NCBI RefSeq assembly: GCF_003334405.1
Contig: NZ_QOWM01000012.1
Reading direction: 5' to 3' (one strand)
Length of the DNA stretch: 64,000 nt
DNA from: Escherichia coli
GTDB lineage: Bacteria > Pseudomonadota > Gammaproteobacteria > Enterobacterales > Enterobacteriaceae
Both the position numbers and the translations under genes were made by a program. This document shows, piece by piece, positions 14,780-49,175 of the stretch (the first letter of the stretch is position 1; each line of letters opens with the position of its first letter). The notes beneath the pieces were generated by a model, which was not told the DNA's origin, did not search any database, and saw nothing but the letters and a program-made list of their open reading frames with translations.

Positions 14780-14816
14780 TTCCTGCGTCACTCCTGCTTC
14801 AATCCGCATACGCTAA

Positions 14817-14832
14817 GCAATCGCCGTGCCAT
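14817..14832 (-). promoter_or_regulatory. sigma54 (-24/-12) promoter of the lfgB rod/hook operon
   Basis: Minus strand reads TGGCACG-gcga-TTGCT (plus-strand agcaatcgccgtgcca), an exact match to TGGCACG-N4-TTGCW, about 35 bp upstream of the lfgB ATG and followed by an AGGAGT RBS. Confidence 0.7.
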
Positions 14833-16525: not shown

Positions 16526-17455
16526 ATGAGTTTTATTGAATGTTACGAACCGGAATACGTGCGCAATTTTATGACGCAATACCCCGGTTCGCCTTTATAC
16601 GTCCGCAAGGTGTGGAAAAACGAGATTCGCCTGAGCCTGATGCTGACAGAGCCAGAAAGCTGCGAAGCGATGCTCAACGATGTCAGGGCCTTTGATTTAC
16701 AGCTCACCTACCGTCCTGTGGAAGAAAATGCCGCAGAGCTTTCCGCGCGCGATGCGATAGTAAACCAGGTGATTTTGAGTACCCTCACGCTCCGTGATTT
16801 AACACCAGAACTGTCATTGTATGCCGTCGGTATCCTGCTCTCCCGCGCCAGTAAAATGCCGGGCAGAGACGGAGATATTCTTGCCCGTTTGACGACGCTG
16901 CCGCAGGCGCTGGCCGATCATGCGAAAAAAGGCATCCTACAGGCACAGTTCGCCCAGCTGCCGCCCGTGCCACAGCTGGTGCGTCACCTGGCCACGTTAC
17001 TCGGGAGTTTTACGTTTGACTGGTCGATTTTGCCGGAAAGCCCGCGCAAAACTTCGCTGCCGTTGCAGATGCCTTTGCTGACGCTGCATGACGCTAACAG
17101 CGAAGCCCTGTTACAACAGCAGCTTCAGACGCAGTGGCAAACCACCTGGCAACAGCATTTTGCCACCGCGCCCTGGATGATGCGTAACTGGCTGATTTAC
17201 CGCGTTTACCACGATGTGATTGGGCAGACTGACGGGGCGGATTATTTCCCGCTGGTGTGCGATTTTTATCTCCTCCGCACGTTAATCAGTTTATGGACGC
17301 TGGATGGTTCTTCGCTGCGGCAGGAGGATATTTTCGCCCTCTTTGCCATGTTTGAACGCTGGCGAGCCAGTGAAAATGCGCTGTTGGTTCGCCAGCAAAT
17401 TCAGTCGTTATGTGCCGCCGACCCGCTGCTTTCAGCGTTTTCGCTGCTAACGTGA
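16526..17455 (+). CDS. Hypothetical protein in the flagellar modification island
   Basis: 309-aa ORF from MSFIECYEPEYVRNF.. (RBS GGAAG); Gln/Leu-rich, no family recognised by eye; codirectional with lfgN and the glycosyltransferase gene. Confidence 0.5.
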   Translation: MSFIECYEPEYVRNFMTQYPGSPLYVRKVWKNEIRLSLMLTEPESCEAMLNDVRAFDLQLTYRPVEENAAELSARDAIVNQVILSTLTLRDLTPELSLYAVGILLSRASKMPGRDGDILARLTTLPQALADHAKKGILQAQFAQLPPVPQLVRHLATLLGSFTFDWSILPESPRKTSLPLQMPLLTLHDANSEALLQQQLQTQWQTTWQQHFATAPWMMRNWLIYRVYHDVIGQTDGADYFPLVCDFYLLRTLISLWTLDGSSLRQEDIFALFAMFERWRASENALLVRQQIQSLCAADPLLSAFSLLT

Positions 17456-17633: not shown

Positions 17634-20078
17634 ATGCCAACACCAACCATCATCAAAACACTCAACACCCACCGCGAAAAACCGTTTGTCAGCGTCGTCA
17701 CGCCAACCTGGAACCGCGGCGCATTCCTGCCGTACCTGCTCTATATGTACCGCTATCAGGATTACCCGGCAGACCGCCGCGAACTCATCATCCTCGACGA
17801 TTCCCCACAAAGCCATCAACACATCATCGACCGCCTGACCAATGGCACGCCGGAAGCCTTTAACATCCGCTACATCCATCACCCGGAAAAACTGCCGCTG
17901 GGCAAAAAACGCAACATGCTCAACGAACTGGCGCGCGGCGAATACATCCTCTGCATGGACGATGACGACTACTACCCGGCAGATAAAATCTCTTACACCA
18001 TCGCCATGATGCAAAAACACCGGGCGCTCATCTCCGGCTCCGATCAGATCCCCATCTGGTACAGCCACATCAACCGCATCTTTCAAAGCCGCAGCTTTGG
18101 CCCGCATAACATCCTCAACGGCACCTTTTGCTATCACCGTAACTACCTGAAAAAGCACCGTTACGACGATGATTGCAATTTAGGCGAAGAGAAACGTTTC
18201 ACCGACAATTTCAGCGTAAACCCGCTGCAACTGCCCGGCGAGCGCACGATTCTGTGTATCTCGCATAGTCAAAACACCTTTGATAAAGATTTTATTCTCG
18301 GGGCCAGCACGCCAGTAAACGCGGCGCTTACGGATATCGTCCGCGATCCGCTGCTGCGCAATGCTTATCTGAGTCTGCATAACGCCACTCATCACCAGGC
18401 GATCAACCATCAGGCGATCGATCAGATCGTTCTGCTGAATCTGGATAAACGCCCGGATCGCTTACAACAGATCCGTGAAGAACTGGCATTGCTGCATATT
18501 CCACCTGAGAAGATCACCCGCCTTGCCGCCAGTGAAGATGAAAACGGTCAACGGGGCCGCCGTCAGTCGCACTTACAGGCGCTGCGCCTGGCGCAACAGC
18601 ACGGCTGGCAAAACTACCTGCTGCTGGAAGATGACGCGGTTATTCTCAAGCAGGAGAAACATATTCAGGTACTGAACACGCTGCTGGCGAGCCTGGCGAA
18701 AATTCCCTGGCAGGTGATGATCCTCGGTGGCGAAATTTCGCAGGGAACGATGCTAAAAAGTTTGCCGGGGCTGGTGCACGCGCGGGACTGCCGCAAAGTG
18801 TGCGCGTATCTGGTGAACAGCCGCTACTACCCGCAACTGGCGCAGCAGATGAGCAACGATGAGCACTCGCTGGAAGCCTGCTGGCAGCCGCTGCTACGCG
18901 CCGACAAATGGCTGGCCTGTTACCCGAGCCTTTGCTACCAGCGACCGGGTTTTAGTGATATCGAGAAAAAAACGACTGATAATATTGCTCACTATTTCAA
19001 TAAGTTACCCGTAGCCACCAAGCCATCTACATTACCCATCGCCGATACCATCGGCTTTTTTATGGAAACCTCATTCCACTACACGCTGTACCGCCCAATC
19101 ATCACCGCTCTACAGGCGCAGGGGCAGAGCTGCACACTAGTGATCAATGACCGCGTGTTTAAACCGTTTCTTGATGAGATGCTGGAAACACTGAAAAACA
19201 TCGACGATCCGCAGCTTAAAGGTATGCGTCTGTCAGAAATGCAGACACATGGTCAGCGGGTGAAATGCCTGGTCAGCCCCTACCACACGCCTGCGCTCAA
19301 TGGCCTGGCGGCGGTGAACATCCGCGCTATGTACGGCTTAGCCAAAGAGACGTGGAACCACGCCGACTGGAATCGTTTTTACCAAAGCATTTTGTGTTAT
19401 AGCCACTACAGTCAGCAGGCGCTGGCGCATTTCGGCAGCGCAAAAGTGGTCGGCAACCCGCGCTTCGACGCCTGGCATAACGGCACGTTCGATCGCGCGT
19501 TGCCGGAAAACATCCAATCAGATTACCGTAAACCTACGGTGCTCTATGCCCCAACGTTTAGCGCATTAAGCTCCCTGCCCCACTGGGCTGAAAAATTGGG
19601 CCGCTTGAGCGGTGATGTGAACCTGATTTGCAAACTGCACCATGGCACCTGCTCACGCCCGGAAGAAGCAGCATCGCTGGCCCTGGTGCGCAGGCATTTA
19701 AAACAGCGCACCGACTCCGCCCGCCACACGCTGGCGCTGCTGGCAAAAGCCGATTACGTGCTGACCGATAACAGCGGGTTTATTTTCGATGCTATCCACG
19801 TTGATAAGCGGGTGATCCTGCTCGACTTTCCGGGCATGAATGATTTGCTCGACGGTGAGAAAAGTTATTCCACGGCAGAGAGCGCCGACCAGCGAATCCG
19901 CGAAATATTGCCGGTTGCTCATGATGTTGCAGAACTGCGTTATTTGTTGTCAGAGGCGTTTGACTGGGGGTCGGTGCAGGCGCGGCTTACGGAGATTCGC
20001 CATCACTATTGCGATGCGTTTATGGATGGCAAGGCGGGAGAACGGGCGGCGATTGTGATTGTGGAGGCGCTGGGGTAA
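17634..20078 (+). CDS. Three-module putative glycosyltransferase: GT2-like N terminus, GT25-like middle, TagF-like CDP-glycerol glycerophosphotransferase C terminus
   Basis: N terminus VSVVTPTWNRGAFLP..ILDDSP..CMDDDDYY (GT2 DxD); middle IVLLNLDKRPDRLQQIREEL.. (GT25-like); C terminus PTVLYAPTFS.. and YVLTDNSGFIFDAIHVDKRVILLDFP (TagB/TagF-like); start taken at ATG 17634 because the track start lies in the repeat. Confidence 0.7.
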   Translation: MPTPTIIKTLNTHREKPFVSVVTPTWNRGAFLPYLLYMYRYQDYPADRRELIILDDSPQSHQHIIDRLTNGTPEAFNIRYIHHPEKLPLGKKRNMLNELARGEYILCMDDDDYYPADKISYTIAMMQKHRALISGSDQIPIWYSHINRIFQSRSFGPHNILNGTFCYHRNYLKKHRYDDDCNLGEEKRFTDNFSVNPLQLPGERTILCISHSQNTFDKDFILGASTPVNAALTDIVRDPLLRNAYLSLHNATHHQAINHQAIDQIVLLNLDKRPDRLQQIREELALLHIPPEKITRLAASEDENGQRGRRQSHLQALRLAQQHGWQNYLLLEDDAVILKQEKHIQVLNTLLASLAKIPWQVMILGGEISQGTMLKSLPGLVHARDCRKVCAYLVNSRYYPQLAQQMSNDEHSLEACWQPLLRADKWLACYPSLCYQRPGFSDIEKKTTDNIAHYFNKLPVATKPSTLPIADTIGFFMETSFHYTLYRPIITALQAQGQSCTLVINDRVFKPFLDEMLETLKNIDDPQLKGMRLSEMQTHGQRVKCLVSPYHTPALNGLAAVNIRAMYGLAKETWNHADWNRFYQSILCYSHYSQQALAHFGSAKVVGNPRFDAWHNGTFDRALPENIQSDYRKPTVLYAPTFSALSSLPHWAEKLGRLSGDVNLICKLHHGTCSRPEEAASLALVRRHLKQRTDSARHTLALLAKADYVLTDNSGFIFDAIHVDKRVILLDFPGMNDLLDGEKSYSTAESADQRIREILPVAHDVAELRYLLSEAFDWGSVQARLTEIRHHYCDAFMDGKAGERAAIVIVEALG

Positions 20079-23074: not shown

Positions 23075-24085
23075 TTACTCCGCCGTCTGTTCCGCAAAGA
23101 GCTGTAGCTGAATTTCGCCCGCCTCTTCCAGTTCACGGGCGATGCCCATGATTTCGCGGCGGATCTGTTCGATACGGCTGACCGGCACCGGCCCCAGGCG
23201 CGCGGTGATCGCTTCCAGTTGTTGCACCTGACGTTTTGGCATTACCGCGTAAATCGAGCGCCGCAACAGGGCTTCGGTGCCTTTCAGCGCCACCGCCCAG
23301 TCTTCCATCGGCACTTCGTCGAGCAGACGTCGACGTACCTCTTCGTTCTGGCGGCTGAGGATAAAGAAGTCGTACATCTCATCCTGGAGCTGCTCCAGCA
23401 CCTCTTCGTCGCGCTCGCGCATCTGGTCGAGGATCACCTGCTGGTTACCCTGGAAGCGGTTGACGATATCCGCCGCCTGTTTGATGCCTTTCACCTTCGA
23501 GCCATGTTCAGAGAGCACCGACAGGCCGCGTTCGATCAGCCTGTCCAGTTCATCCACCACGTCGCGGTTAACGTCGTTGAGTTTCGCCACCCGATAGAGA
23601 ATTTCGTTTTGCACCGATTCATTGAGATACGAGAGCACCGCCGCCGAGATTTCCGGCGTCAGAAACGCGAGGAACACCGCCTGTAATTGCAAATGCTCTT
23701 CGGAGATCAGCATCGCCAGCTGGCGTGGTTCCACCCATTGCAGGCGCGCCATCCGCGAGCGGATCTCATCGCCGTAGATGCCGTTGATCACGCTGCTGGC
23801 GATCTCGGTGCCGAGGGCTTTGTTGAGAATACCCTGCAACATGGATCGCGATGCGCCGTTGATCCCGCTCTGTTCGCGGAACTCATCAAAGAAGTTATTG
23901 ATCACTTTGCGCGCCATGCTGGTTTTGACGCCGGAAAGCCGCGCCATGTTTTCGCTCAGGCGCACTACTTCTTCGCGGCTGAGTTTTTGCATCACCGTCG
24001 CCGCCGCCTCTTCGCCCAGACACAGCAGCAGGATCGCCGCCTGTTCCAGGTAGCTGTTGCTCTTATTTGTTGTCAATTCGCTCAT
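23075..24085 (-). CDS. lfiG: Flagellar motor switch protein FliG-like
   Basis: 336-aa ORF with FliG-like middle and C-terminal domains. Confidence 0.85.
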   Translation of the reverse strand: MSELTTNKSNSYLEQAAILLLCLGEEAAATVMQKLSREEVVRLSENMARLSGVKTSMARKVINNFFDEFREQSGINGASRSMLQGILNKALGTEIASSVINGIYGDEIRSRMARLQWVEPRQLAMLISEEHLQLQAVFLAFLTPEISAAVLSYLNESVQNEILYRVAKLNDVNRDVVDELDRLIERGLSVLSEHGSKVKGIKQAADIVNRFQGNQQVILDQMRERDEEVLEQLQDEMYDFFILSRQNEEVRRRLLDEVPMEDWAVALKGTEALLRRSIYAVMPKRQVQQLEAITARLGPVPVSRIEQIRREIMGIARELEEAGEIQLQLFAEQTAE

Positions 24086-25713: not shown

Positions 25714-26055
25714 TTAGATCGACATACTCATCAGGTCGTTAAACCCGGTGGCGATTTTATTGCGCACCTGCACCAGCGCGGAGAAAGAGAGCGACGCCTG
25801 CTGGCTGGCGATCATCGCACCTGCCAGGTCATCACTTTTGCCCGTGTCGACAGCCGTTTGCTGCTGCTCCGCCACCTGCTGGAACTGATCAACATGACCA
25901 AGCGCGCCGTACATAATGCGGTTAAACGACACGTCCGGGTCTGTGGAACTGAAGGTCATGGCGGGTAGCACCGGCGCCTGGGCGTTGGCCTGCATCCGCT
26001 GCACGTCCTGCATGATTTGCGCCTGCATGGTGCTGTTGATTGTGGTAATGCTCAT
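25714..26055 (-). CDS. lfiE: Flagellar hook-basal body protein FliE-like
   Basis: 113-aa ORF with a FliE-like C terminus; begins 14 bp after the lafK stop. Confidence 0.8.
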   Translation of the reverse strand: MSITTINSTMQAQIMQDVQRMQANAQAPVLPAMTFSSTDPDVSFNRIMYGALGHVDQFQQVAEQQQTAVDTGKSDDLAGAMIASQQASLSFSALVQVRNKIATGFNDLMSMSI

Positions 26056-26069
26056 TTTTAACTTCCGGG

Positions 26070-27056
26070 TCAGGAGAAAACTTCGATACCTTGCTTGCGC
26101 ATGGAGGCCAGTCGATAGCGCAGTGCGCGCGGGGTAATGCCTAACAGGTCGGCGATTTTGCTGCGGTTGCCCTGATATTTACGCATCAGGTCAGCGATAT
26201 ATTGATACTGGGCGCTTCGTCCGTGCTGGCCCAAATCGCTGGTTTCGGCAATGTGGACGGCGGGCTGAACAGGCCATTGCAGTTCGCTGCGGTCGGCAAC
26301 GTCCGTTTCCGGCAGGCCTAAGGCATCCGGGTAAATCACGCCGTCGCGATTTAAAATCATTCCCCGCTGAATGGCGTTCTCCAGCTGGCGCACGTTGCCG
26401 GGCCAGCGGTAATTGAGCAGCGCCCGGCGGGTAGATTCTGAAAGGGTGATATTTTTCACCAGCACCGTGGAGTACTTTTTTATAAATGACTCTGCCAGCG
26501 GAATAATATCGTTCAGACGTTCACGCAGTGGCGGCATGGTAATAGGAATAACCGCCAGACGATAATAGAGATCTTCACGAAAACGCCCGGCAGCCACTTC
26601 CTGTTCAAGGTTTTTATTGGTGCAGGCAATCAGGCGAAAATTGAGTTTAATTTGTCGGTTGCTGCCTAATCGCTCAACCTGTTGCTCCTGCAATACGCGT
26701 AATATTTTGGCCTGTAGCGCCAGCGGCATATCGCCAATTTCATCGAGTAATAAGGTGCCGTTATTCGCTAGTTCCATTTTTCCTGGCACACTGGCAATTG
26801 CGCCGGTAAATGCGCCTTTGTCGTAGCCAAATAATGTAGCTTCCAGCATGTTTTCCGGGATCGCTGCACAGTTCACGCCGATATAGGGCGCGTTATCATT
26901 TTCACCAAAGGCTACGGTGTGAATATATTTCGCCACGCATTCTTTGCCCGCGCCGGTTTCGCCCTGAATGAGCACCGGCACGTTAAATGCGGCGACACGC
27001 TTTGCCAGAGTAAAAGCGTTAATGCTGGAAGCGGCAGTTGCAATAAGTTCAGACAT
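26070..27056 (-). CDS. lafK: sigma54-dependent transcriptional activator without a receiver domain (AAA+ domain plus C-terminal HTH)
   Basis: Walker A GETGAGKE, GAFTGA motif (YDKGAFTGA), Walker B LLLDEIGDM, C-terminal HTH; the protein begins directly at the AAA+ domain (328 aa). Confidence 0.85.
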   Translation of the reverse strand: MSELIATAASSINAFTLAKRVAAFNVPVLIQGETGAGKECVAKYIHTVAFGENDNAPYIGVNCAAIPENMLEATLFGYDKGAFTGAIASVPGKMELANNGTLLLDEIGDMPLALQAKILRVLQEQQVERLGSNRQIKLNFRLIACTNKNLEQEVAAGRFREDLYYRLAVIPITMPPLRERLNDIIPLAESFIKKYSTVLVKNITLSESTRRALLNYRWPGNVRQLENAIQRGMILNRDGVIYPDALGLPETDVADRSELQWPVQPAVHIAETSDLGQHGRSAQYQYIADLMRKYQGNRSKIADLLGITPRALRYRLASMRKQGIEVFS

Positions 27057-27177
27057 AGGGTGAACGATATCAGTAGCGACAGAAAACAGGATATTGTGAA
27101 GCGTATCACCGGCGGGATTAACAAGTTCGAATTAAACGATAATAAAAATATTATTTTATGGTAAACAATGAGTTATC

Positions 27178-27275
<98 letters not shown>

Positions 27276-27442
27276 GTGTTATGACGATGCCTGATATCTA
27301 GCCCTTTAATAATTTAATTATTTTTTCATCCTATTAATAATTTGCCCCTTTCACTCCCCCTCTATTTAATACCTCACCTTGTGTCACTGCCGGATTTGCG
27401 TGCACAAAATCGCCCATACCATTACAGCAGAGAAAGTAAGCC

Positions 27443-28294
27443 ATGCTGAAGTACAGTAAAACGCCAGGCATCTTTAAATTAGAAGGTAATCGGCTCGGAC
27501 GCCCCTACCATCACCTGCCGACCCTGTTTACGGGGAATTTTGACGTGATTGATTCGCATCTGGGCAGCTACTTTCTCAAAAAGCATCGCAGCAATATCAC
27601 CTTAAAAAAGATTGGCTGCGAAATGGATATTATTAATAAAAACGCTGAACTAATGATTTCCCAGGTCGGGCATCTGGCGTTTGATATTGATCGCTCCTTG
27701 CTGTTAATGCTGCTGGGCAATTTTTATGGTCTGGAGTCGTCTCTTGAAGAGGCGAAAGCGCATAACGGCCTGCCGACCAAAACCGAAACACGATTAAAGA
27801 ACCGACTCGCGCTGGATATCTGCACGCTGATATTTAATCTGCAAACCTCCGGTATTGCGCTGAAATTAAAGCTGGACAGCAGCACGGTGATTACCCACTG
27901 GGCGTATCAATTAACCTTTACCCTTGCGGGCGATGAAGAGAGCTGTTTTCGTATTTTGCTCGACGACGCCCACACCGATTTTATTTTAAATCTGATCCGC
28001 CACAGCGAGCACAGTAAACCGCAGCAGGTGGCGAAATCCGTCAATAAACCGGCCCTGATTAAAGAGATCATCCGCTCCCTGCCGCTGACCCTGAACGTCA
28101 AAATCGCCGAGCTATCGATGAATGTCGCGGATCTCACGCAGATAAAAGCCGGGGATATTTTACCCATCTCGCTGGGAGAAACGTTCCCGGTGGCGATTGG
28201 GCAATCTGAATTATTTAGCGCCCTGATTGTGGAAGACAAAGACAAACTGTTTTTGTCGGAGCTGGCGGGCAAAAATGAGAATAGCCATGAGTAA
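27443..28294 (+). CDS. lfiM: Flagellar motor switch protein FliM-like (no N-terminal CheY-binding motif)
   Basis: 283-aa ORF ahead of the FliN-like gene with a SpoA-like C-terminal segment (GDILPISLGETFPVAIGQSELFSALIV); no LSQxEIDxLL motif at the N terminus. Confidence 0.6.
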   Translation: MLKYSKTPGIFKLEGNRLGRPYHHLPTLFTGNFDVIDSHLGSYFLKKHRSNITLKKIGCEMDIINKNAELMISQVGHLAFDIDRSLLLMLLGNFYGLESSLEEAKAHNGLPTKTETRLKNRLALDICTLIFNLQTSGIALKLKLDSSTVITHWAYQLTFTLAGDEESCFRILLDDAHTDFILNLIRHSEHSKPQQVAKSVNKPALIKEIIRSLPLTLNVKIAELSMNVADLTQIKAGDILPISLGETFPVAIGQSELFSALIVEDKDKLFLSELAGKNENSHE

Positions 28295-28658
28295 GCAAGA
28301 AGATATTTTAGCCGGGGATTTTGGCCTCACCGATGAAGTTGCGCCTGTCGCAAAATCCGCCGACGCTGAAACGCTGGTCACCCGCCTGGAAGACCGTTTT
28401 TCCGACTCGATGACGCTGCTAAAACGCATTCCGGTGACCTTAACGCTGGAAGTGTCGTCGGTGGAGATCATGTTAGCCGACCTCCTTAACATCGACGACG
28501 ACACGGTGATTGAGCTGGATAAACTCGCCGGGGAGCCGCTGGATATTAAAGTGAACAATATCCTGCTGGGCAAAGCGGAAGTGGTGGTGGTCAACGAGAA
28601 GTACGGCCTGCGCGTGCTGGAATTTAACACCCGCGATATCAACGACCTGGCACCATGA
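28287..28658 (+). CDS. lfiN: Flagellar motor switch protein FliN-like
   Basis: SpoA domain (..IELDKLAGEPLDIKVNNILLGKAEVVVVNEKYGLRVLEF); start taken at ATG 28287. Confidence 0.8.
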   Translation: MSKQEDILAGDFGLTDEVAPVAKSADAETLVTRLEDRFSDSMTLLKRIPVTLTLEVSSVEIMLADLLNIDDDTVIELDKLAGEPLDIKVNNILLGKAEVVVVNEKYGLRVLEFNTRDINDLAP

Positions 28659-29407
28659 AACGCCGCACTCAACTGACGCTGGGCCTTGGGCTGCTGGCGC
28701 TTGCGCCGCTGGCAATCGCCCAGGGCGGCGATATTGCGCTGCTTAACGTGGTCACCCACGGCAACACTCAGGAGTACAGCGTCAAAATTCAGGTACTGAT
28801 TCTGATGACCCTCGTCGGTTTGCTGCCGACGATGGCGCTGATGATGACCTGCTTTGCGCGCTTTATTATCGTGCTGTCGCTGCTGCGCCAGGCGCTAGGG
28901 CTGCAACAAACGCCGCCAAACCGCATTCTGATTGGCATTGCGCTCTCCCTCACCATGCTGGTGATGCGCCCCATCTGGCTCAATATTTACGACCACGCAG
29001 TAGTGCCGTTCGAAAACGATCAGATTACCCTGACCGATGCGTTAAGCACCGCCGCGACGCCACTCAAACGCTTTATGCTGGCGCAGACCGACAAAAAAGC
29101 GATGGCGCAAATCATGACCATCGGAGGCGCGAAGGGCAATGCCGCCGACCAGGATCTCTCTATCGTGGTGCCCGCCTATGTGTTGAGCGAGCTGAAAACC
29201 GCTTTCCAGATTGGCTTTATGATTTACATCCCGTTTCTGGTTATCGACCTGATTGTCGCAAGCGTACTGATGGCGATGGGGATGATGATGCTGTCGCCGC
29301 TGATTGTTTCGCTGCCCTTTAAGCTGATGCTGTTTGTGCTGATCGACGGCTGGTCGCTGACCATCGGCACGCTCACCACCAGCATTCGCGGGCTGGGGCT
29401 GGGCTGA
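28655..29407 (+). CDS. lfiP: Flagellar export apparatus protein FliP-like
   Basis: 250-aa multi-TM ORF with FliP-like motifs (..FQIGFMIYIPFLVIDL..). Confidence 0.9.
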   Translation: MKRRTQLTLGLGLLALAPLAIAQGGDIALLNVVTHGNTQEYSVKIQVLILMTLVGLLPTMALMMTCFARFIIVLSLLRQALGLQQTPPNRILIGIALSLTMLVMRPIWLNIYDHAVVPFENDQITLTDALSTAATPLKRFMLAQTDKKAMAQIMTIGGAKGNAADQDLSIVVPAYVLSELKTAFQIGFMIYIPFLVIDLIVASVLMAMGMMMLSPLIVSLPFKLMLFVLIDGWSLTIGTLTTSIRGLGLG

Positions 29408-29409
29408 TT

Positions 29410-29682
29410 ATGTTGACCGTAGACGTTGCCGCCGACATTGTCGCCAGCGGCATAAAAGTAGTGATTTTGCTGGTTTCGGTACTGGTGGTGCCGAGTTTGC
29501 TGGTCGGCCTGCTGGTGAGCGTGTTCCAGGCGGTAACGCAGATTAACGAACAGACCCTGAGCTTTTTGCCGAGGCTGATTGTCACGCTGGTGGTGCTGGG
29601 CGTGTGCGGCAAATGGATGATTATCCAGTTGCATGATCTCTGCATTCACCTGTTTACCCAGGCCGCCCTGCTGGTGCATTAA
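29410..29682 (+). CDS. lfiQ: Flagellar export apparatus protein FliQ-like
   Basis: 90-aa two-TM ORF, FliQ-like. Confidence 0.9.
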   Translation: MLTVDVAADIVASGIKVVILLVSVLVVPSLLVGLLVSVFQAVTQINEQTLSFLPRLIVTLVVLGVCGKWMIIQLHDLCIHLFTQAALLVH

Positions 29683-29683
29683 G

Positions 29684-30466
29684 ATGCGCACAAGCGACGT
29701 TACGCAACTGATGGATCTGGCGCTGGGGCTGTGGTTTCCCTTTGTGCGCATTATGGCGTTTCTGCGCTATGTGCCAGTGCTGGATAACAGCGCCCTGACC
29801 GTGCGCGTGCGGATTATTTTGTCGCTGGCGCTGGCAATCATCATCACGCCGTTAATTCCGCATCCCATTCCCCACGACCTGCTTTCACTCAACAGCCTGA
29901 TCCTGACGGTGGAGCAAATTTTATGGGGCATGTTATTCGGGCTGATGTTTCAGTTTTTGTTTCTGGCGCTACAGCTGGCCGGGCAAATTCTCTCGTTCAA
30001 TATGGGGATGAGCATGGCGGTGATGAACGACCCGAGCAGTGGCGCATCGACCACCGTGCTGGCGGAGCTCATCAACGTCTACGCGATCCTGCTGTTTTTT
30101 GCCATGGACGGGCATCTGCTGCTGGTGAGTGTGCTGTATAAGGGCTTTACCTACTGGCCGATTGGCAACGCGCTGCATCCGCAAACCCTGCGCACCATCG
30201 CGCTGGCCTTTAGCTGGGTGCTGGCGTCCGCATCGCTGCTGGCGCTGCCAACCACTTTTATCATGCTGATTGTGCAGGGCTGCTTTGGCCTGCTCAACCG
30301 CATTGCGCCGCCGCTGAACCTTTTTTCACTCGGTTTTCCCATCAACATGCTGGCGGGGCTGGTCTGCTTTGCCACCCTGCTCTACAACCTGCCGGATCAC
30401 TATCTGCATCTGGCGAATTTTGTGTTGCAGCAACTCGACGCGCTGAAAGGTCACTATGGCGGATAG
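29684..30466 (+). CDS. lfiR: Flagellar export apparatus protein FliR-like
   Basis: Multi-TM ORF; start taken at ATG 29684 just after the lfiQ stop. Confidence 0.85.
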   Translation: MRTSDVTQLMDLALGLWFPFVRIMAFLRYVPVLDNSALTVRVRIILSLALAIIITPLIPHPIPHDLLSLNSLILTVEQILWGMLFGLMFQFLFLALQLAGQILSFNMGMSMAVMNDPSSGASTTVLAELINVYAILLFFAMDGHLLLVSVLYKGFTYWPIGNALHPQTLRTIALAFSWVLASASLLALPTTFIMLIVQGCFGLLNRIAPPLNLFSLGFPINMLAGLVCFATLLYNLPDHYLHLANFVLQQLDALKGHYGG

Positions 30467-31595
30467 CAGCAGCGAAGAAAAAACAGAAAAACCCTCGGCG
30501 CAAAAGCTGCGTAAAGCGCGTGAAGAGGGGCAACTGCCGCGCTCGAAGGATATGGGGCTGGCGGCGAGCCTGTTTGCGGCGTTTGTGGTGATCTCCAGCA
30601 GCTTCCCGTGGTATGCCGATTTTGTGCGCGAGAGTTTTATCAGCGTGCATCAGTACGCGCAGGAGATTAATAACCCGGAGGTGATCGGCCAGTTTCTGCG
30701 CCATCACCTGTTAATACTCGGCAAGTTTATTCTCACCTTGCTGCCGATGCCCGCTGCCGCGCTACTCTCTTCGCTGGTGCCCGGCGGCTGGCTGTTTCTG
30801 CCGAAAAAAATCCTCCCGGATTTCAGCAAAATCAGCCCGTTAAAAGGCATTGGGCGGCTGTTTTCCAGTGAACATCTGGCGGAAACGGGAAAGATGACGG
30901 TGAAGTCGGTGGTGGTGCTGGTGATGCTGTGGGTAAGCCTGCGCAATAACTTTGCCGCCTTTCTCGGCCTGCAGGCGCTACCGTTCAAACTGGCGATGAA
31001 TGAGGGTTTATCGCTCTACGCCTGCGTGATGCGCAACTTTGTCATCCTGTTTATCTTCTTTGCGTTAATCGACGTGCCGCTGGCGAAAGCCCTGTTTACC
31101 AAAGGGCTGAAGATGACCAAACAGGAGCTGAAAGAAGAGTATAAAAACCAGGAAGGCAAGCCGGAAGTGAAGGCGCGCGTGCGGCGTCTGCAACGGCAGT
31201 TGGCGATGGGGCAAATTCGCAAAGTGGTGCCGAAAGCCAACGTGGTGATCACCAACCCGACCCACTACGCCGTGGCGTTGCAGTATGACTCGTCGCGCGC
31301 CGCCGCGCCGTTTGTGGTGGCGAAAGGCACCGATGAAATCGCCCTCTATATTCGCCAGGTCGCCGCTGAGAATCAGGTGGAAGTGGTCGAGTTCCCGCGA
31401 CTGGCGCGCTCGGTTTACTACACCACCCAGGTGAACCAGCAAATTCCGTTTCAGCTTTACCGGGCCATCGCCCACGTTCTGACCTACGTCCTGCAAATGA
31501 AACACTGGCGCGAGGGTGCACAGCCGCGCCCGGCCCTGAACAGACATATTTCCATTCCCAAAGAGGTGCTTAAACTGGATGGCGAAAACAACTAA
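30456..31595 (+). CDS. lfhB: Flagellar export apparatus protein FlhB-like
   Basis: 379-aa ORF with the NPTH autocleavage motif (VVITNPTHYAVAL). Confidence 0.9.
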   Translation: MADSSSEEKTEKPSAQKLRKAREEGQLPRSKDMGLAASLFAAFVVISSSFPWYADFVRESFISVHQYAQEINNPEVIGQFLRHHLLILGKFILTLLPMPAAALLSSLVPGGWLFLPKKILPDFSKISPLKGIGRLFSSEHLAETGKMTVKSVVVLVMLWVSLRNNFAAFLGLQALPFKLAMNEGLSLYACVMRNFVILFIFFALIDVPLAKALFTKGLKMTKQELKEEYKNQEGKPEVKARVRRLQRQLAMGQIRKVVPKANVVITNPTHYAVALQYDSSRAAAPFVVAKGTDEIALYIRQVAAENQVEVVEFPRLARSVYYTTQVNQQIPFQLYRAIAHVLTYVLQMKHWREGAQPRPALNRHISIPKEVLKLDGENN

Positions 31596-33672
31596 ATCGT
31601 TCCTCGCGCTGCTGCGCGGCGGCAATCTCGGCGTGCCGCTGGTGATCCTGTGTATTCTGGCGATGGTTATTTTGCCGCTGCCGCCTGCGCTGCTGGATAT
31701 TCTGTTCACCTTCAACATTGTGCTGGCGGTGATGGTGCTGCTGGTGGCGGTGTCGGCGAAACGACCGCTGGAATTCAGCCTGTTCCCGACCATTTTGCTG
31801 ATCACCACCTTAATGCGCCTGACGCTTAACGTTGCTTCTACGCGCGTGGTGCTGCTGCACGGGCATCTCGGCGCGGGCGCGGCGGGTAAGGTGATTGAGT
31901 CGTTTGGTCAGGTGGTGATCGGCGGCAACTTTGTCGTCGGCTTCGTGGTGTTTATCATCCTGATGATCATCAACTTTATTGTCGTCACCAAAGGGGCCGA
32001 GCGTATTTCCGAGGTTTCTGCCCGCTTTACCTTAGACGCGATGCCCGGCAAACAGATGGCGATTGACGCCGATCTTAACGCCGGATTGATCAACCAGGCG
32101 CAGGCGCAAACCCGGCGTAAAGATGTTGCCAGCGAGGCCGATTTCTACGGCGCGATGGACGGGGCATCGAAGTTTGTGCGCGGGGACGCCATCGCCGGGA
32201 TGATGATTCTGGCGATCAACCTGATCGGCGGCGTCTGTATCGGGATCTTCAAATACAACCTGAGCGCCGATGCTGCCTTCCAGCAGTATGTGCTGATGAC
32301 CATCGGCGACGGCCTGGTGGCGCAGATCCCTTCCCTGCTGCTCTCCACCGCGGCGGCGATTATCGTCACCCGCGTCAGCGACAACGGCGATATCGCCCAT
32401 GACGTGCGTAACCAGCTGCTGGCAAGCCCGTCGGTGCTCTACACCGCCACCGGGATTATGTTCGTGCTGGCGGTGGTACCGGGAATGCCGCACCTGCCGT
32501 TTTTGCTGTTCAGCGCCCTGCTTGGTTTTACCGGCTGGCGGATGAGCAAACAGCCGCTGGCGGCGGAGGCGGAAGAGAAAAGCCTCGAAACGCTGACCCG
32601 CACCATCACCGAAACCAGCGAGCAGCAGGTCAGTTGGGAAACCATTCCGCTGATCGAGCCTATCAGTTTAAGCCTCGGTTACAAACTGGTGGCGCTGGTG
32701 GACAAAGCACAGGGTAACCCGCTCACCCAGCGGATTCGCGGCGTGCGGCAGGTGATTTCTGACGGCAACGGCGTGCTGCTGCCGGAGATCCGCATTCGGG
32801 AAAACTTCCGCCTTAAGCCCAGTCAGTACGCCATTTTCATCAACGGCATAAAGGCTGATGAAGCGGATATTCCGGCGGATAAACTGATGGCCCTGCCCTC
32901 CAGCGAAACCTACGGCGAGATTGACGGCGTGCAGGGGAACGACCCGGCGTACGGGATGCCGGTCACCTGGATCCAGGCGGCGCAGAAAGCGAAGGCGCTG
33001 AATATGGGGTATCAGGTGATCGACAGCGCCAGCGTGATCGCTACCCATGTAAATAAGATTGTGCGCAGCTATATTCCTGATTTGTTTAACTATGATGATA
33101 TTACGCAGTTGCATAACCGTTTATCGTCGACGGCACCGCGTCTGGCGGAAGATTTGAGCGCGGCGCTCAATTACAGCCAGTTGCTGAAAGTGTACCGGGC
33201 GCTGCTGACCGAAGGCGTTTCCCTGCGCGATATCGTCACCATCGCCACCGTGCTGGTCGCCAGTAGCACGGTGACGAAAGATCATATTCTGCTGGCGGCC
33301 GATGTGCGCCTGGCATTGCGGCGCAGCATTACCCATCCGTTCGTTCGCAAGCAGGAGCTGACGGTGTATACGCTGAATAATGAGCTGGAAAATCTGCTGA
33401 CCAACGTGGTGAATCAGGCGCAACAGGGCGGGAAAGTGATGCTCGACAGCGTGCCGGTCGATCCGAATATGCTCAACCAGTTCCAGAGTACGATGCCACA
33501 GGTGAAAGAGCAGATGAAAGCGGCGGGGAAAGACCCGGTGCTGCTGGTGCCACCGCAGCTGCGCCCTTTGCTGGCGCGTTATGCAAGGTTGTTTGCGCCG
33601 GGGCTGCATGTGCTGTCGTATAACGAAGTGCCGGATGAGCTGGAGTTGAAGATTATGGGGGCGTTGATGTAA
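31579..33672 (+). CDS. lfhA: Flagellar export apparatus protein FlhA-like (full length)
   Basis: 697-aa ORF with the FlhA TM region and cytoplasmic domain; no frameshift. Confidence 0.9.
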   Translation: MAKTTKSFLALLRGGNLGVPLVILCILAMVILPLPPALLDILFTFNIVLAVMVLLVAVSAKRPLEFSLFPTILLITTLMRLTLNVASTRVVLLHGHLGAGAAGKVIESFGQVVIGGNFVVGFVVFIILMIINFIVVTKGAERISEVSARFTLDAMPGKQMAIDADLNAGLINQAQAQTRRKDVASEADFYGAMDGASKFVRGDAIAGMMILAINLIGGVCIGIFKYNLSADAAFQQYVLMTIGDGLVAQIPSLLLSTAAAIIVTRVSDNGDIAHDVRNQLLASPSVLYTATGIMFVLAVVPGMPHLPFLLFSALLGFTGWRMSKQPLAAEAEEKSLETLTRTITETSEQQVSWETIPLIEPISLSLGYKLVALVDKAQGNPLTQRIRGVRQVISDGNGVLLPEIRIRENFRLKPSQYAIFINGIKADEADIPADKLMALPSSETYGEIDGVQGNDPAYGMPVTWIQAAQKAKALNMGYQVIDSASVIATHVNKIVRSYIPDLFNYDDITQLHNRLSSTAPRLAEDLSAALNYSQLLKVYRALLTEGVSLRDIVTIATVLVASSTVTKDHILLAADVRLALRRSITHPFVRKQELTVYTLNNELENLLTNVVNQAQQGGKVMLDSVPVDPNMLNQFQSTMPQVKEQMKAAGKDPVLLVPPQLRPLLARYARLFAPGLHVLSYNEVPDELELKIMGALM

Positions 33673-36224: not shown

Positions 36225-36965
36225 ATGCGTAAAATCGCATTAATTCTTGCGATGTTGTTGATCCCGTGCGTTTCATTTGCCGGTTTGCTGGGCAGCAGTA
36301 GCTCTACCACGCCTGTGAGCAAAGAGTATAAGCAGCAGTTGATGGGATCCCCTGTCTACATCCAGATCTTCAAGGAAGAACGTACGCTCGATCTCTACGT
36401 CAAAATGGGCGAGCAATATCAACTGCTCGACAGCTATAAAATCTGTAAATATTCCGGCGGCTTAGGGCCAAAACAGCGTCAGGGCGATTTCAAAAGCCCG
36501 GAAGGGTTTTATAGCGTCCAGCGTAATCAGTTAAAACCAGACAGCCGTTACTACAAAGCGATTAATATTGGTTTCCCCAATGCCTATGACCGTGCGCATG
36601 GTTATGAAGGGAAATACCTGATGATCCACGGCGATTGTGTTTCCATCGGCTGCTACGCAATGACCAATCAGGGTATTGATGAGATATTCCAGTTCGTTAC
36701 TGGTGCGCTGGTGTTTGGTCAGCCGAGCGTGCAAGTGAGTATTTACCCGTTCCGCATGACCGACGCCAATATGAAGCGCCATAAATATTCCAACTTTAAG
36801 GACTTCTGGGAGCAACTGAAGCCGGGTTACGACTACTTTGAGCAAACCCGTAAGCCACCAACCGTTTCTGTGGTCAATGGTCGTTACGTGGTCAGCAAGC
36901 CGTTAAGCCACGAAGTTGTGCAGCCACAACTGGCATCAAACTACACGCTCCCCGAGGCAAAATAA
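36225..36965 (+). CDS. yafK: YkuD-fold L,D-transpeptidase-like periplasmic protein
   Basis: Signal peptide and YkuD catalytic motif (..[17 protein letters not shown]..). Confidence 0.85.
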
Positions 36966-42611: not shown

Positions 42612-42651
42612 GTGGGGGTTGTGTTTAAGGACGGGGAGAGTCGGGGTATTA

Positions 42652-43788
42652 CTACGAAAGCCCGCTCCCCGCAAGGACTGACGCCAGGTAGTTTCTGTCC
42701 ATGGCTGCTTTTCGCATCTTACGTCTTAACCCTGCCTTGAATACCTTCTCATTCGTCAAAATATTAATAGCAATGTGCCGTATCCCTGAAAATAATTCTG
42801 CTGCGTTTCCTCTTCTTATTTTGTAGTCGTCTTCATTCATTACCACGTCCAGACGCCTGTGCAGCTTATTCTCCACGTGCCAGTGGTTTCGGATTGCTGT
42901 GGCGAACTTCTCTGCGGTTAAATCAGCAGAACTGATATAATATCTGACCGTCATTTCTGGCTCTTTCTTTTGTTCTGCTATTATTGACCGAAAGGAGACT
43001 GCCACGCATAATTTCTTCAGCCCTTTCCATTCAAACGTGAAATCAATAAGTTCATCAGGGACATCGCAAACAATATGAAGACGGATTTCTTCTCTGCCGT
43101 GACTCTTTTCACTCATTGCGTAACTGTCATGCGCTGGATTATTTAATTCTTTCAGCGGAAATTTTTCCTCAAAGGCTTTATTTAGCCGCCCCTGGTTTCC
43201 TTTTACCGCGAATAAATAATCACCTCCCTGTTTTTGTATCTTCTCTGCAATATCTTTCTGGCAACCCATCGCATCAGTTGTGATGATTTTTCCTTTAATA
43301 TCCAGCATGTTAAGAAGTTCTGGGATAGCTGTAATCTCATTAGATTTCTCATCCGTCCTGATCTGTCCGATGACCAGACTGTGCATTGTTGAGAACGCAC
43401 TAATGACATGAATCGCTCCCTTGCGGCGACTCTTGTCATAAGAATGCCGGAGTGTTTTTCCATCAATTGCGATGACGTCTTTATCATCTGAAGTATGGCA
43501 ATCTCGCATCCAGTTAATAAAGCACTCGTGAAATTTTGAAGGACTGATACAGGATACAACTCTGGCGATGGTATCGTGAACAGGAATACCATTTTCAAAA
43601 TCACCATATTGTTTTAAAAAATCGAGATGTGTTTCCCCAAAATCCTCTATATCTTCCCAGCCTTCTGCACCAGAAATAACGGCACAAATAGTCAACAGTA
43701 GAATATCCGATAATTTATGTTCCACTTTCCAGGCTTGTCTGTAATCGGGGATAATAGAAATATGTTCCATCAATTTTTTAAGTTCCAT
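42652..43788 (-). CDS. ISAs1-family (H-repeat-associated) transposase
   Basis: 378-aa ORF, apparently intact, with an H-repeat/ISAs1-type transposase sequence; the element ends were not mapped. Confidence 0.8.
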
Positions 43789-44218
43789 TTTGTTCTCCTT
43801 AATTATGTAAGGAGTATTTGATCATGTATAAGCAATAAAAAACAGCTTCAGGTAATGAGGAATATCTCAATTTTTAAACATAAAATGCGAATTATTTAGT
43901 ACAAAAAATCAGCGTTACGTGATCTTTCCCTGCCCCTGCGCTCACTACCATGGCTCTTTACCACAGCAGCCGGGGTTGTTTGGGACCGACTTCCGACAGC
44001 AGATCCCGGTGGGCCTGCCACCATCTCTTCACAAGCTTATGCTTATTACATGCAAAACGTCCCGTTTTGCATCTTTGTGCCTACGGCACACCGGTGATCT
44101 TTCCCTGATGAGGGATATATTAACTATTGAACATTAGCGCGAATTATTTAGTGCAAAAAATCAGCATCACGTGATGCTTTTCCTGCTATTAATAACCTCC
44201 TCTATTTAACTATATTTT

Positions 44219-44611
44219 TCATTGATGCAATTCGTAGATTTGAAGAAGTTCAACTGCCACATTTTTATTTTTACTATCGCAATTTTTATACCATACCCAT
44301 GCTTCCGTATTTTTTACTTTTTTTAAATCATCCATAATAAAATCCCCACCAAAAACAGTAAAATACAATGTTTCCTCATTAAAAATAAAACTCACTGCCC
44401 CCCCCTCTTTTATTTTAATTTCCGCTTCATTTGTGTTCAAATCAACTTTTTTAATTACTCCATGTAAGTTGGGTTTTGATAGTTTTTCTACGCCACCATC
44501 AGGAGCGGGTAATATACATCGTTTAAGAACTTTAGCATTTGCACATCCAATAACCCAAATTAGAATGCACACTCCCATGTTAATCGCATTAACGTGTCTT
44601 AAAACGTTCAT
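44219..44611 (-). CDS. Candidate immunity lipoprotein for the adjacent Rhs C-terminal toxin
   Basis: Small AT-rich ORF immediately downstream of and overlapping the Rhs tip; internal Met gives the signal-peptide/lipobox-like start [15 protein letters not shown]. Confidence 0.4.
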
Positions 44612-46017
44612 ATCTAATTCTCTCTCCAGGATGCGAATACATCCAACTTGTCACTTTCTTACACAACTCATCTACATCTTCATTCTGTGCACGGGTACAT
44701 CCCATAGTTGGTTTCCAGCCTTGTCGAGGAGCATAAGGATCGCGCAACGATGATCCCCCACCATGTAGCCATCTTGCTCTAGTATCTGTAGTATAGATCT
44801 TCGTTGTGCCATATGCTGCCGATATTCCTGATTCATTTGTCTCACAACCAACGACTTCACCTGTATATGGATCACCAGCACCACGTTGAGAACGACGATC
44901 AATTCTATTGCTACTATCAAAAGTCATTGAATCACCTGTTTCAGGATCATAATAAATAGTCACTCCTCCAGTCATATCAGTAAGAACAAGAGGAGTTTCA
45001 GCACCTGCCCGGTCTGGAGCGGGAGGCCCATATACACTTATAACTCGTTCTAACCCCAGTGGATCAGTGTAACGTATTGGTACCAGTGGATACGTGTATA
45101 GATTTATTCCCCCCTTCAACCCTATCGGATCCTGGGTGATATACCGCCCCTGCAACGGATCGTAGTACCGGTGACGGTTGTAATACAGTCCCGACTCCTC
45201 ATCATACTGCTGCCCCGGCAGACGGAGTGACTGTTGAAGGTGCTGCGCACTGGTTTCGCCCAGCAGGTTTCCCCATTCGTCATACTCCCCGCACCACGCC
45301 GTTTCCCCTTCCGGGCTGATAAGCGCCTGCGGCAGTCCCCGGTGGTCACAGTGGTAAAGATGAAGTTTCCTCTCCGGGATGTATTCCGCCTCCATCTGCG
45401 CGGCCATCTGTTCCGCCGTCAGCCCGCACTGCGCAAGCCATGCCTCACTCTCCGCACTCACCGCTCCCGCGCGCAGTTCCCGCTCCAGCCTCCCCAGCAT
45501 CACCGCCAGCTCCGCCGGGAGCGTCACACCCGTGTCCTCCTGCAACACCTCCGCCAGGCTCCGGTGCCGCGCCTTCGCCTGTTCGCCATTCTCTGTTTCG
45601 ATTCTGATGAGCGGCGTGAAGCTCCCCGGCTGGTATACCGTCTGGATACGCGTGGTGCCGGTCTGTACCGTCGTCAGCCTGTCACCGTCCCACCCGTACC
45701 ATGTCACCTCCGGTTTACGCGACAGCGACATCCACCCCGTCAGGTCACGCTCCCGCCGCCATACCCGTTTTCCCGTCCGGCGGCCCAGCGGGTCATAGAG
45801 GTACCGGCTCTCCACCTGTGGTTCGCCGTGCTGTATCCGCGTGTAGAACACCAGGCGGTGCTGGCTGTCGTAGTGGTAGTGGTGGGTCCGCTCGTCGTGC
45901 ATCCGTATCACCCCTTCCGGGATGCGGTCCGTCTTCTCCGCCAGCCTGCCGTATTCATCGTGGCGGTAGACATAGTGCGCATCTTCCGCGATGCGGTTAC
46001 CCGGCGTTTTCCCCGAT
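44589..46017 (-). pseudogene. Orphan Rhs C-terminal fragment: distal core, DPxGL boundary and variable C-terminal toxin domain
   Basis: ..[31 protein letters not shown] followed by a ~150-aa divergent tip; no N-terminal Rhs core; the frame stays open upstream of the track start to about 46017. Confidence 0.7.
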
Positions 46018-48511: not shown

Positions 48512-49170
48512 GCAGGTTGCGCGTTTTCCGGCAGACAGGATGGTTTATCGCGGGCCTGATGACGGGCTTACCCGCCACTGCCGCGCCCGCAGAAGCATCG
48601 TCAATGGCCGGTGTGGCGGTCGCCGTCGCCACCACGACCCCGCCGGATGCGACAGCCACGTTACAGGCCATACAGTCCTGTCGGCGGGAGTCCGCGGCGC
48701 TGGAGCGGCTTGACTGCTATGACCGCCTGCTGGCACCGCTGTCCCCGTCAGGGTTTGACGGGGCGCTGGTCAAAGCCGGTTTTGTGGGCGAGGCCTGGAC
48801 CCGCGCCACAGAGCAGGAAAAACGCCGCGAGGGCAACACCACAGAACTGCTGGTGACGCAGGTGCCGGGGGAGCGCCCGACGGTGGTGATAACCACCCCG
48901 GCTATCGGTCATGTTCCGCCACGCCCGGTGCTGATGTTCAGTTGCGTGGACAATATCACCCGGATGCAGGTGGCGCTGATGCACCCTCTGGATGTCCATG
49001 ATATCGCCGTCACTCTGAATGCCGACAACCGGGCATTGCGCAGCCACTGGTTTGTGCGCGAGAACGGCACCCTGCTGGAGTCCAGCCGGGGGTTATCCGG
49101 GATTGATGAAATTAAGCAACTGTTCGGCGCAAAAACGCTGACGGTGGATACCAGGGACGACGTATCGGGC
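48508..49170 (+). CDS. VasI-like T6SS-associated periplasmic protein; 3' end appears fused to the tssM fragment
   Basis: Signal peptide and a ..AALERLDCYDRLL.. motif; start overlaps the clpV stop (ATGA); the reading frame switches into tssM-homologous sequence near 49170. Confidence 0.4.
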
Positions 49171-49175
49171 CTTAT

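Follow-up and report, generated by a model that had tools for sequence, protein, structure and literature searches.

The Flag-2 (lateral-type) flagellar locus of Escherichia coli encodes a FliM homologue, LfiM, which does not carry the N-terminal peptide by which canonical FliM captures phosphorylated CheY (CheY-P). We analysed this protein in a stretch of 64,000 nucleotides of the E. coli chromosome (contig NZ_QOWM01000012.1 of assembly GCF_003334405.1; hereafter the window), in which lfiM occupies positions 27443..28294 on the + strand and codes for a 283-amino-acid (aa) protein. LfiM has the fold of FliM, the absence of the peptide extends to the whole family of lateral FliMs to which it belongs, and the gene is under purifying selection. 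The explanation that we consider probable as a whole is that LfiM is the FliM of the Flag-2 cytoplasmic ring (C-ring), that it is deprived of CheY-P capture and that the motor built with it is mostly insulated from chemotaxis.

The open reading frame (ORF) of lfiM, as read in the window, is intact from the ATG at 27443 to the TAA at 28292-28294, and the N-terminus of its product is MLKYSKTPGIFKLEGN; length and N-terminus thus agree with those given in an earlier note made on the letters of this DNA. The same note had stated that the LSQxEIDxLL docking motif is missing, and the searches bear this out: neither this motif nor its loosened form, [LIVM][ST][QDE]xE[IV][DE]xL[LIVMF], has any match in LfiM or anywhere in the 64-kb window read in all six frames. 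A very loose docking pattern gave two irrelevant matches, one inside lfiN and the other at 36681-36704 (-). As a positive control, a comparable loosened expression found the docking motif in all four canonical FliMs to which it was applied (4/4). A longer N-terminus is impossible: the ATG is preceded, at a distance of two codons, by an in-frame TAA, and the 386-bp intergenic region before the gene (27057-27442) encodes no docking-like peptide in any frame. A mis-called start or a frameshift hiding a longer LfiM is thereby ruled out. In RefSeq the product is named ‘FliM/FliN family flagellar motor switch protein’; the gene name lfiM, which dates from 2005, fits the E. coli Flag-2 nomenclature of Ren et al. 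from that year.

The relationship of LfiM to FliM is not evident from routine searches. The identity of LfiM to canonical FliM is 12–15% over the whole protein. The FliM model of Pfam (PF02154) does not match it, the only Pfam domain detected is FliMN_C (PF01052; residues 210-269, E=1.1e-6), and the score against TIGR01397 is 27.8 bits compared with a cutoff of 219.6, the match being limited to residues 163-262. No solved FliM was matched when LfiM was compared with the PDB by phmmer, and a word-indexed homologue search reached Enterobacterales only. To establish the relationship it was necessary to combine a profile search (covering 1.84 billion representative proteins), an alignment of 101 family sequences, hhalign and a structure model. 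With hhalign, the family alignment matched Salmonella FliM (sequence taken from PDB 8umd_C) at 96.5% and E=9e-10, residues 5-271 of LfiM lying over residues 30-315 of FliM. The AlphaFold model of LfiM, built on the same family alignment, has a mean predicted local distance difference test score (pLDDT) of 88.8, which rises from 64–74 to 91 across residues 1-30. The best Foldseek matches to this model are full-length Salmonella FliM chains from cryo-electron microscopy structures of the C-ring (8wo5, 8umx and 8umd; E about 1e-10). The FliM middle domains 2hp7, 4gc8, 5x0z and 4qrm were also matched, with template modelling scores (normalized on the target) of 0.60–0.65 and probability 1.00, and the C-terminus matched the SpoA domains of FliN, HrcQb and SpaO. 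The C-terminal SpoA (FliN-like) domain can therefore be placed by PF01052 and Foldseek at residues 210-269, that is, at 28070..28249 (+). Judged by alignment and predicted structure, LfiM is a genuine two-domain FliM homologue with a CheC-like middle domain followed by SpoA. The genomic setting is that of fliM as well, since lfiM sits directly 5' of fliN in the flagellar export/basal-body operon, as canonical fliM does.

LfiM and the canonical FliM of E. coli and Salmonella (Flag-1) have in common the two-domain fold, the order of the domains, the pairing with a fliN gene, a TxTE segment (‘THTEQR’ in FliM, ‘TKTETR’ in LfiM) and the GDxLP segment of the SpoA domain. Unlike canonical FliM, LfiM has no counterpart of residues 1 to about 25, as residue 5 of LfiM falls opposite residue 30 of FliM in the hhalign alignment. 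The docking peptide corresponds to FliM residues 1-16 (PMC11087270), so what the alignment indicates is the loss of the CheY-P peptide plus most of the tether, with retention of the ordered core. A comparison of LfiM with canonical and lateral FliMs, which the earlier note had proposed as a check on its claim, thus showed peptide and tether to be missing and detected no CheY-binding motif. Two further differences lie inside the core. Both hhalign and MAFFT leave the stretch of FliM around residues 87-96 unmatched in the lateral family; this stretch includes R94, which has been cited as key to the binding of CheY at the middle domain (PMC11087270). The GGXG motif for binding of FliG is not kept either: in the same two alignments, codons 94-98 of lfiM (F-Y-G-L-E; 27722..27736, +) stand at the position of the FliM ‘FGGDG’, with FliM ‘LFGGDG’ opposite LfiM ‘FYGLES’, so that YGLE replaces GGDG, and the lateral family conserves only Y95 and G96 (at least 90%). 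The architecture of LfiM is therefore that of FliM, yet the protein fails three canonical features, namely the docking peptide, GGXG and the hidden Markov model (HMM) cutoffs. The earlier note had understated this divergence, which comprises the low identity, the replaced GGXG and the missing internal segment.

The profile search returned 207 relatives of LfiM, nearly all of 267–300 aa, and canonical FliMs with LSQxEIDALL appeared only at the weak end of the match list. We defined as lateral-type those proteins of about 265–300 aa that start 10–25 residues before an LG(R/K)PxH segment and have no EIDAL; LfiM belongs to this family by its length, its LGRPxH, its absence of EIDAL and the synteny of its gene. 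The docking motif is absent from 60 full-length LfiMs of Enterobacterales, from 110 lateral FliMs of Vibrionaceae and from 89 other representatives, and every one of these 259 proteins carries the LG(R/K)P-type segment (60/60, 110/110 and the 89 others), at a median position of about 23. As far as these sequences allow a judgement, the loss of the docking peptide is a family-wide trait and not a peculiarity of lfiM. In LfiM the segment is L-G-R-P-Y-H, encoded by codons 18-23 (27494..27511, +), and it is the best-conserved segment of the family: among the 101 aligned sequences L18 and G19 never vary, and conservation is at least 90% at R20, P21 and H23. The family ‘LDPxxLGRPxH’ lies opposite the FliM ‘YDPNTQRR’ at the start of the middle domain (around Y38-D39-P40...R44-R45). 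Members of the family were found in Rouxiella, Lelliottia, Pantoea, Photobacterium, Pseudomonas/Ectopseudomonas, Vibrio alginolyticus, V. parahaemolyticus and V. harveyi, as well as in the beta-proteobacteria Iodobacter and Paludibacterium. A second group of weak matches of about 290 aa (P0151, P0159, P0188, P0192, P0195, P0200, P0215 and P0220) has neither EIDAL nor LGRPxH and shares the N-terminal pattern ‘F(I/M)SxE(K/Q)GxxxPxYDL(S/T)G’. A search aimed at the lateral FliMs of Shewanella, Aeromonas and Pseudoalteromonas returned Vibrionaceae alone, and the link of LfiM to the experimental systems of Shewanella and Pseudoalteromonas drawn below comes from the literature and not from sequences. 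Lateral FliMs are named only ‘FliM/FliN family’ because no curated HMM recognises them; the short architecture led by LG(R/K)PxH would let annotation call them correctly.

The gene is also maintained. A single copy of lfiM, with 95–100% identity, is present in 1283 of the 5426 complete E. coli genomes (about 24%). Pairwise dN/dS (ratio of nonsynonymous to synonymous substitution rates) among five intact E. coli alleles, which differ at up to 18–20% of synonymous sites, is 0.02–0.075, and lfiM is thus under strong purifying selection. Across Enterobacterales both the length of the protein (281–289 aa) and its N-terminus are conserved. In one strain, E. coli O6:H16 M9682-C1 (NZ_CP024275.1 365936-367564), the lfiM match is in two pieces with an IS1 transposase annotated there, so that the lfiM/lfiN region is interrupted. 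The spacer between lafK and lfiM contains palindromes of the repetitive extragenic palindromic (REP) or bacterial interspersed mosaic element (BIME) type (window 27170-27275: gtaggccggataaggcgtttacgccgcatccggc ... gatgcctgatgcgacgctgcgcgtcttatcaggcctac), and this REP element accounts for the fact that a 6-kb query matched all 5426 genomes, whereas lfiM itself is present in 1283.

Among the closest known counterparts of LfiM is the lateral FliM of V. parahaemolyticus and V. alginolyticus (FliM_L/LafFliM; VPA1540 family), whose gene occupies an orthologous slot. The Vibrio lateral cluster is syntenic with Flag-2, fliM-fliN-fliPQR-flhBA being divergent from lafK-fliE..J. Both proteins are short (272 aa in Vibrio and 283 aa in E. 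coli) and devoid of the EIDAL peptide, both have LG(K/R)PxH near residue 20 and in both only SpoA is visible to Pfam; their identity is only about 18–20%. The clusters differ in that Vibrio has motY_L (MotY_N plus OmpA) between lafK and fliM (L004 6602-7621), where E. coli has the REP-bearing spacer 27057-27442 and no gene, and in that the Vibrio cluster includes an EAL-domain gene. The Vibrio lateral system is demonstrably functional and is reported to be modulated by CheY.

No che genes are annotated in the matching 64 kb of the RefSeq genome that served as the source of annotation, which is 100% identical to the window over positions 26000-32000 (6 kb compared), and in the same reference genome none occurs in the part of the Flag-2 cluster that extends beyond the window, its left end (with the lafE/F/S/T/U equivalents). 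The earlier observation that the cluster has no che genes was accordingly accurate. The inference drawn from it has no weight, because the 16.8 kb of the Vibrio lateral cluster that were fetched have no che genes either.

Lateral motors of Shewanella and Vibrio are reported to be unidirectional and not to be reversed by CheY-P. The FliM2 of Shewanella putrefaciens is said, by Bubendorfer et al. in 2014 and Schuhmacher et al. in 2015, to be without the N-terminal EIDAL/CheY-binding motif. In S. putrefaciens CN-32, whose secondary lateral system contains FliM2, the lateral motors rotate counter-clockwise only and show no response to chemotaxis signalling (PMC12016497, PMC8042155). In Pseudoalteromonas sp. 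SM9913, where the only che genes are in the polar cluster, CheY binds the polar FliMp and not the lateral FliM in a two-hybrid assay (PMC10304486), which is the behaviour predicted for LfiM. The lateral cluster of this strain includes the PilZ protein FilZ, which E. coli Flag-2 does not have. FilZ works via CheW, on the polar motor and not on the lateral FliM (PMC10304486). More generally, Ferreira et al. described the lateral C-rings of gamma-proteobacteria as having ‘lost chemotactic ability’, with FliM and FliG on long branches (PMC8042155). Loss of chemotactic input in these C-rings is thus already known, and the case of LfiM is a direct extension of it. Our literature search did not find a paper stating the loss of the peptide specifically for E. 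coli LfiM; the comparative flag-2 paper of De Maayer contains nothing on LfiM, CheY or chemotaxis, and its sister paper nothing relevant.

We propose that LfiM is the FliM-equivalent protein of the Flag-2 C-ring, in which its CheC-like middle domain should sit under LfiG and its SpoA domain should pair with LfiN. The core would serve C-ring assembly, docking of the export apparatus and transmission of torque. As LfiM begins about 25 residues ‘late’ relative to FliM, it is devoid of both the CheY-P-capturing peptide and its flexible tether. The host strain presumably carries the Flag-1 fliM and cheY, an assumption based on general knowledge of E. coli and on the identical strains that have been H-typed (O6:H16). 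Without high-affinity capture, CheY-P from the Flag-1 pathway should not concentrate at Flag-2 motors, which for this reason would most likely be unidirectional and largely insulated from chemotactic switching, like the lateral motors of Shewanella and Pseudoalteromonas. At most, a weak modulation of speed that does not require the tether would be expected, similar to the one that V. alginolyticus is reported to show. What we infer, for E. coli, is that LfiM assembles with LfiG and LfiN, that rotation is unidirectional and that the motor is insensitive to CheY-P. The earlier note had suggested that the lateral motor may not be switched by CheY-P or may be coupled differently; its structural half holds, the loss of peptide and tether being precise, and its functional half is plausible, with precedents both ways.

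Several observations weigh against the explanation proposed here. The lateral FliM of V. alginolyticus is equally devoid of the peptide, yet the lateral motor of this species is reported, by Kojima et al. in 2007, to be controlled by the single CheY, which slows it; the earlier note had overlooked this important caveat. The absence of the peptide in LfiM therefore does not prove insulation; it speaks against docking and reversal of the canonical kind, but this does not extend to all influence of CheY. LfiN keeps the EVVVVNEKYG region of the hydrophobic patch, and in FliN this patch (V113/V114/A115) has been reported as a secondary site for CheY (PMC11087270). Neither LafA flagellin protein nor Flag-2 motility was detected in the sequence type 131 strain EC958 under laboratory conditions (PMC4637896). 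The Vibrio and LfiN observations would be accounted for if CheY-P acted on the Flag-2 motor independently of the tether, through low-affinity binding to LfiN or to the middle domain of LfiM, and slowed a unidirectional motor. We regard this as unlikely. The hydrophobic patch of FliN is also the docking site of FliH, so its conservation is not specific to CheY; the lateral family has a gap where FliM has the segment that bears R94, and the two-hybrid assay with the lateral FliM of Pseudoalteromonas revealed no interaction with CheY. Alternatively, input from CheY could have been replaced by that of another, lateral-specific regulator, such as an effector of cyclic di-GMP (c-di-GMP) or a clutch, docking on LGRPxH. 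The prominence of this segment throughout the family and the presence of c-di-GMP-related genes in other lateral clusters (the EAL-domain gene of Vibrio and FilZ of Pseudoalteromonas) could speak for such a role. Nevertheless, LGRPxH aligns with the conserved start of the canonical middle domain (YDP...RR in Salmonella) and begins the well-ordered core of the model, for which a structural role is the simpler explanation, the target of FilZ is the polar motor, and the annotation of the E. coli Flag-2 cluster contains neither a PilZ nor an EAL gene; we consider this second possibility very unlikely.

The silence of Flag-2 in EC958 could also mean that lfiM is left over from a silent, non-functional cluster and is decaying, its missing N-terminus being the product of degradation. 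Some reviews do call the Flag-2 cluster non-functional, a lysine-N-methylase pseudogene lies within it and IS1 has entered the lfiM/lfiN region of one strain. All this is difficult to reconcile with the low dN/dS and the intactness of every allele compared, with the conservation of length and N-terminus across Enterobacterales, with the short architecture shared by the functional lateral systems of Vibrio, with the high-confidence fold of the model and with the core flagellar genes of the window, which are all intact by annotation. A relic is thus highly improbable; the data on selection and on the family effectively refute it. There is even less reason to take LfiM for a SpoA-domain protein other than FliM, either an injectisome SctQ or a phosphatase of the FliY/CheC type, although Pfam sees the SpoA domain alone, NCBIfam gives weak YscQ/SctQ matches, and CheX, CheC and FliY are among the lower Foldseek matches. 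The SctQ scores are far under their cutoffs (19.5 compared with 230 bits for NF005956; 15.7 compared with 100.8 bits for TIGR02551), full-length FliM provides the top structural matches while CheX, CheC and FliY are weaker, and the hhalign match spans FliM residues 30 to 315. The CheC-type site [D/S]xxxExxN(x22)P is absent from LfiM, which does not have even ExxN, and lfiM occupies the place of fliM within a flagellar cluster that is complete, has its own fliN and shows no injectisome context. Fold, alignment and synteny together refute an SctQ or CheC/FliY identity, which we would give next to no chance.

In the window the Flag-2 locus adjoins rayT, yafL and dinJ. Around lfiM, fliJ-I-H-G-F-E and a lafK-like sigma-54 activator gene are on the - strand and are followed on the + strand by lfiM-lfiN-fliP-Q-R-flhB-flhA. 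The flagellar context of LfiM is fixed by the export-gate genes lfiP-lfiQ-lfiR-lfhB-lfhA (28655..33672, +), which lie downstream in the same direction and whose order matches that of the Vibrio lateral cluster. The FliN partner, LfiN (28287..28658, +; 123 aa), is conventional, with a TIGR02480 (fliN) score of 83.5 bits for a cutoff of 84.05. With its ATG at 28287, lfiN shares 8 nt with the end of lfiM, an arrangement suggestive of translational coupling between these C-ring partners. The FliG partner, LfiG (23075..24085, -; 336 aa), scores 202 bits with TIGR00207 (fliG; cutoff 226.7) and is far less diverged than LfiM, although its EHPQ motif is replaced by EHLQ and its MFxF by MYDF. Both faces of the FliG–FliM interface are changed, EHLQ and MYDF in LfiG being accompanied by YGLE for GGXG in LfiM, which would fit with Flag-2 parts not being interchangeable with those of Flag-1.

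The lafK-like sigma-54 activator (26070..27056, -), encoded divergently from lfiM, has 328 aa and consists of AAA+ and helix-turn-helix (HTH) parts only; its NCBIfam matches cover these parts alone, from model position about 120–200 onward. LafK of the Vibrio lateral cluster has 443 aa, with an additional N-terminal region that gives a faint Response_reg match, and the E. coli regulator thus seems to be without an N-terminal input domain. No sigma-54 promoter with three or fewer mismatches was found 5' of lfiM in 27057-27442, which leaves the lfiM operon with no evident promoter; the output of the scan was otherwise noise (275 matches observed compared with 342 expected). A perfect sigma-54 promoter consensus, TGGCACGGCGATTGCT, is present at window 14816-14831 (-), just upstream of lfgB in the divergent lfgB/lfgA region. 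The variable region of Flag-2 contains the lysine-N-methylase gene (about 16526-17455, +), annotated as a pseudogene with an internal stop in the reference strain, then a large glycosyltransferase gene (about 17634-20078) and a gene of the cytidylyltransferase family. Farther along, at about 42650-51000, an ISAs1-family transposase gene precedes the degraded remains of a type VI secretion locus, which comprise an RHS-core pseudogene, an N-terminally truncated tssM pseudogene and then intact genes for a VasL-domain protein and Hcp.

The conceptual gain from LfiM itself is small, given that the loss of chemotaxis by lateral C-rings is already in the literature. Its relevance comes from the locus, which about 24% of the complete E. 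coli genomes carry and on which purifying selection is strong. If Flag-2 is expressed in some niche, its motors would be uncoupled from chemotaxis or only modulated in speed, and among the possible roles of the system are movement on surfaces and persistence in one direction, as opposed to the sensing of gradients. A bolder proposition, which we think rather improbable, is that the lateral FliM family represents a natural experiment of ‘FliM without its N-terminal peptide’ for the study of tether-independent action of CheY, or else that LGRPxH is the input of another regulator. If the control by CheY in Vibrio is direct, CheY-P would act on a tetherless C-ring, presumably via FliN or the middle domain, braking the motor instead of reversing it. 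Were this true, E. coli Flag-2 would offer a tractable system for tether-independent CheY action in the host in which chemotaxis is best understood.

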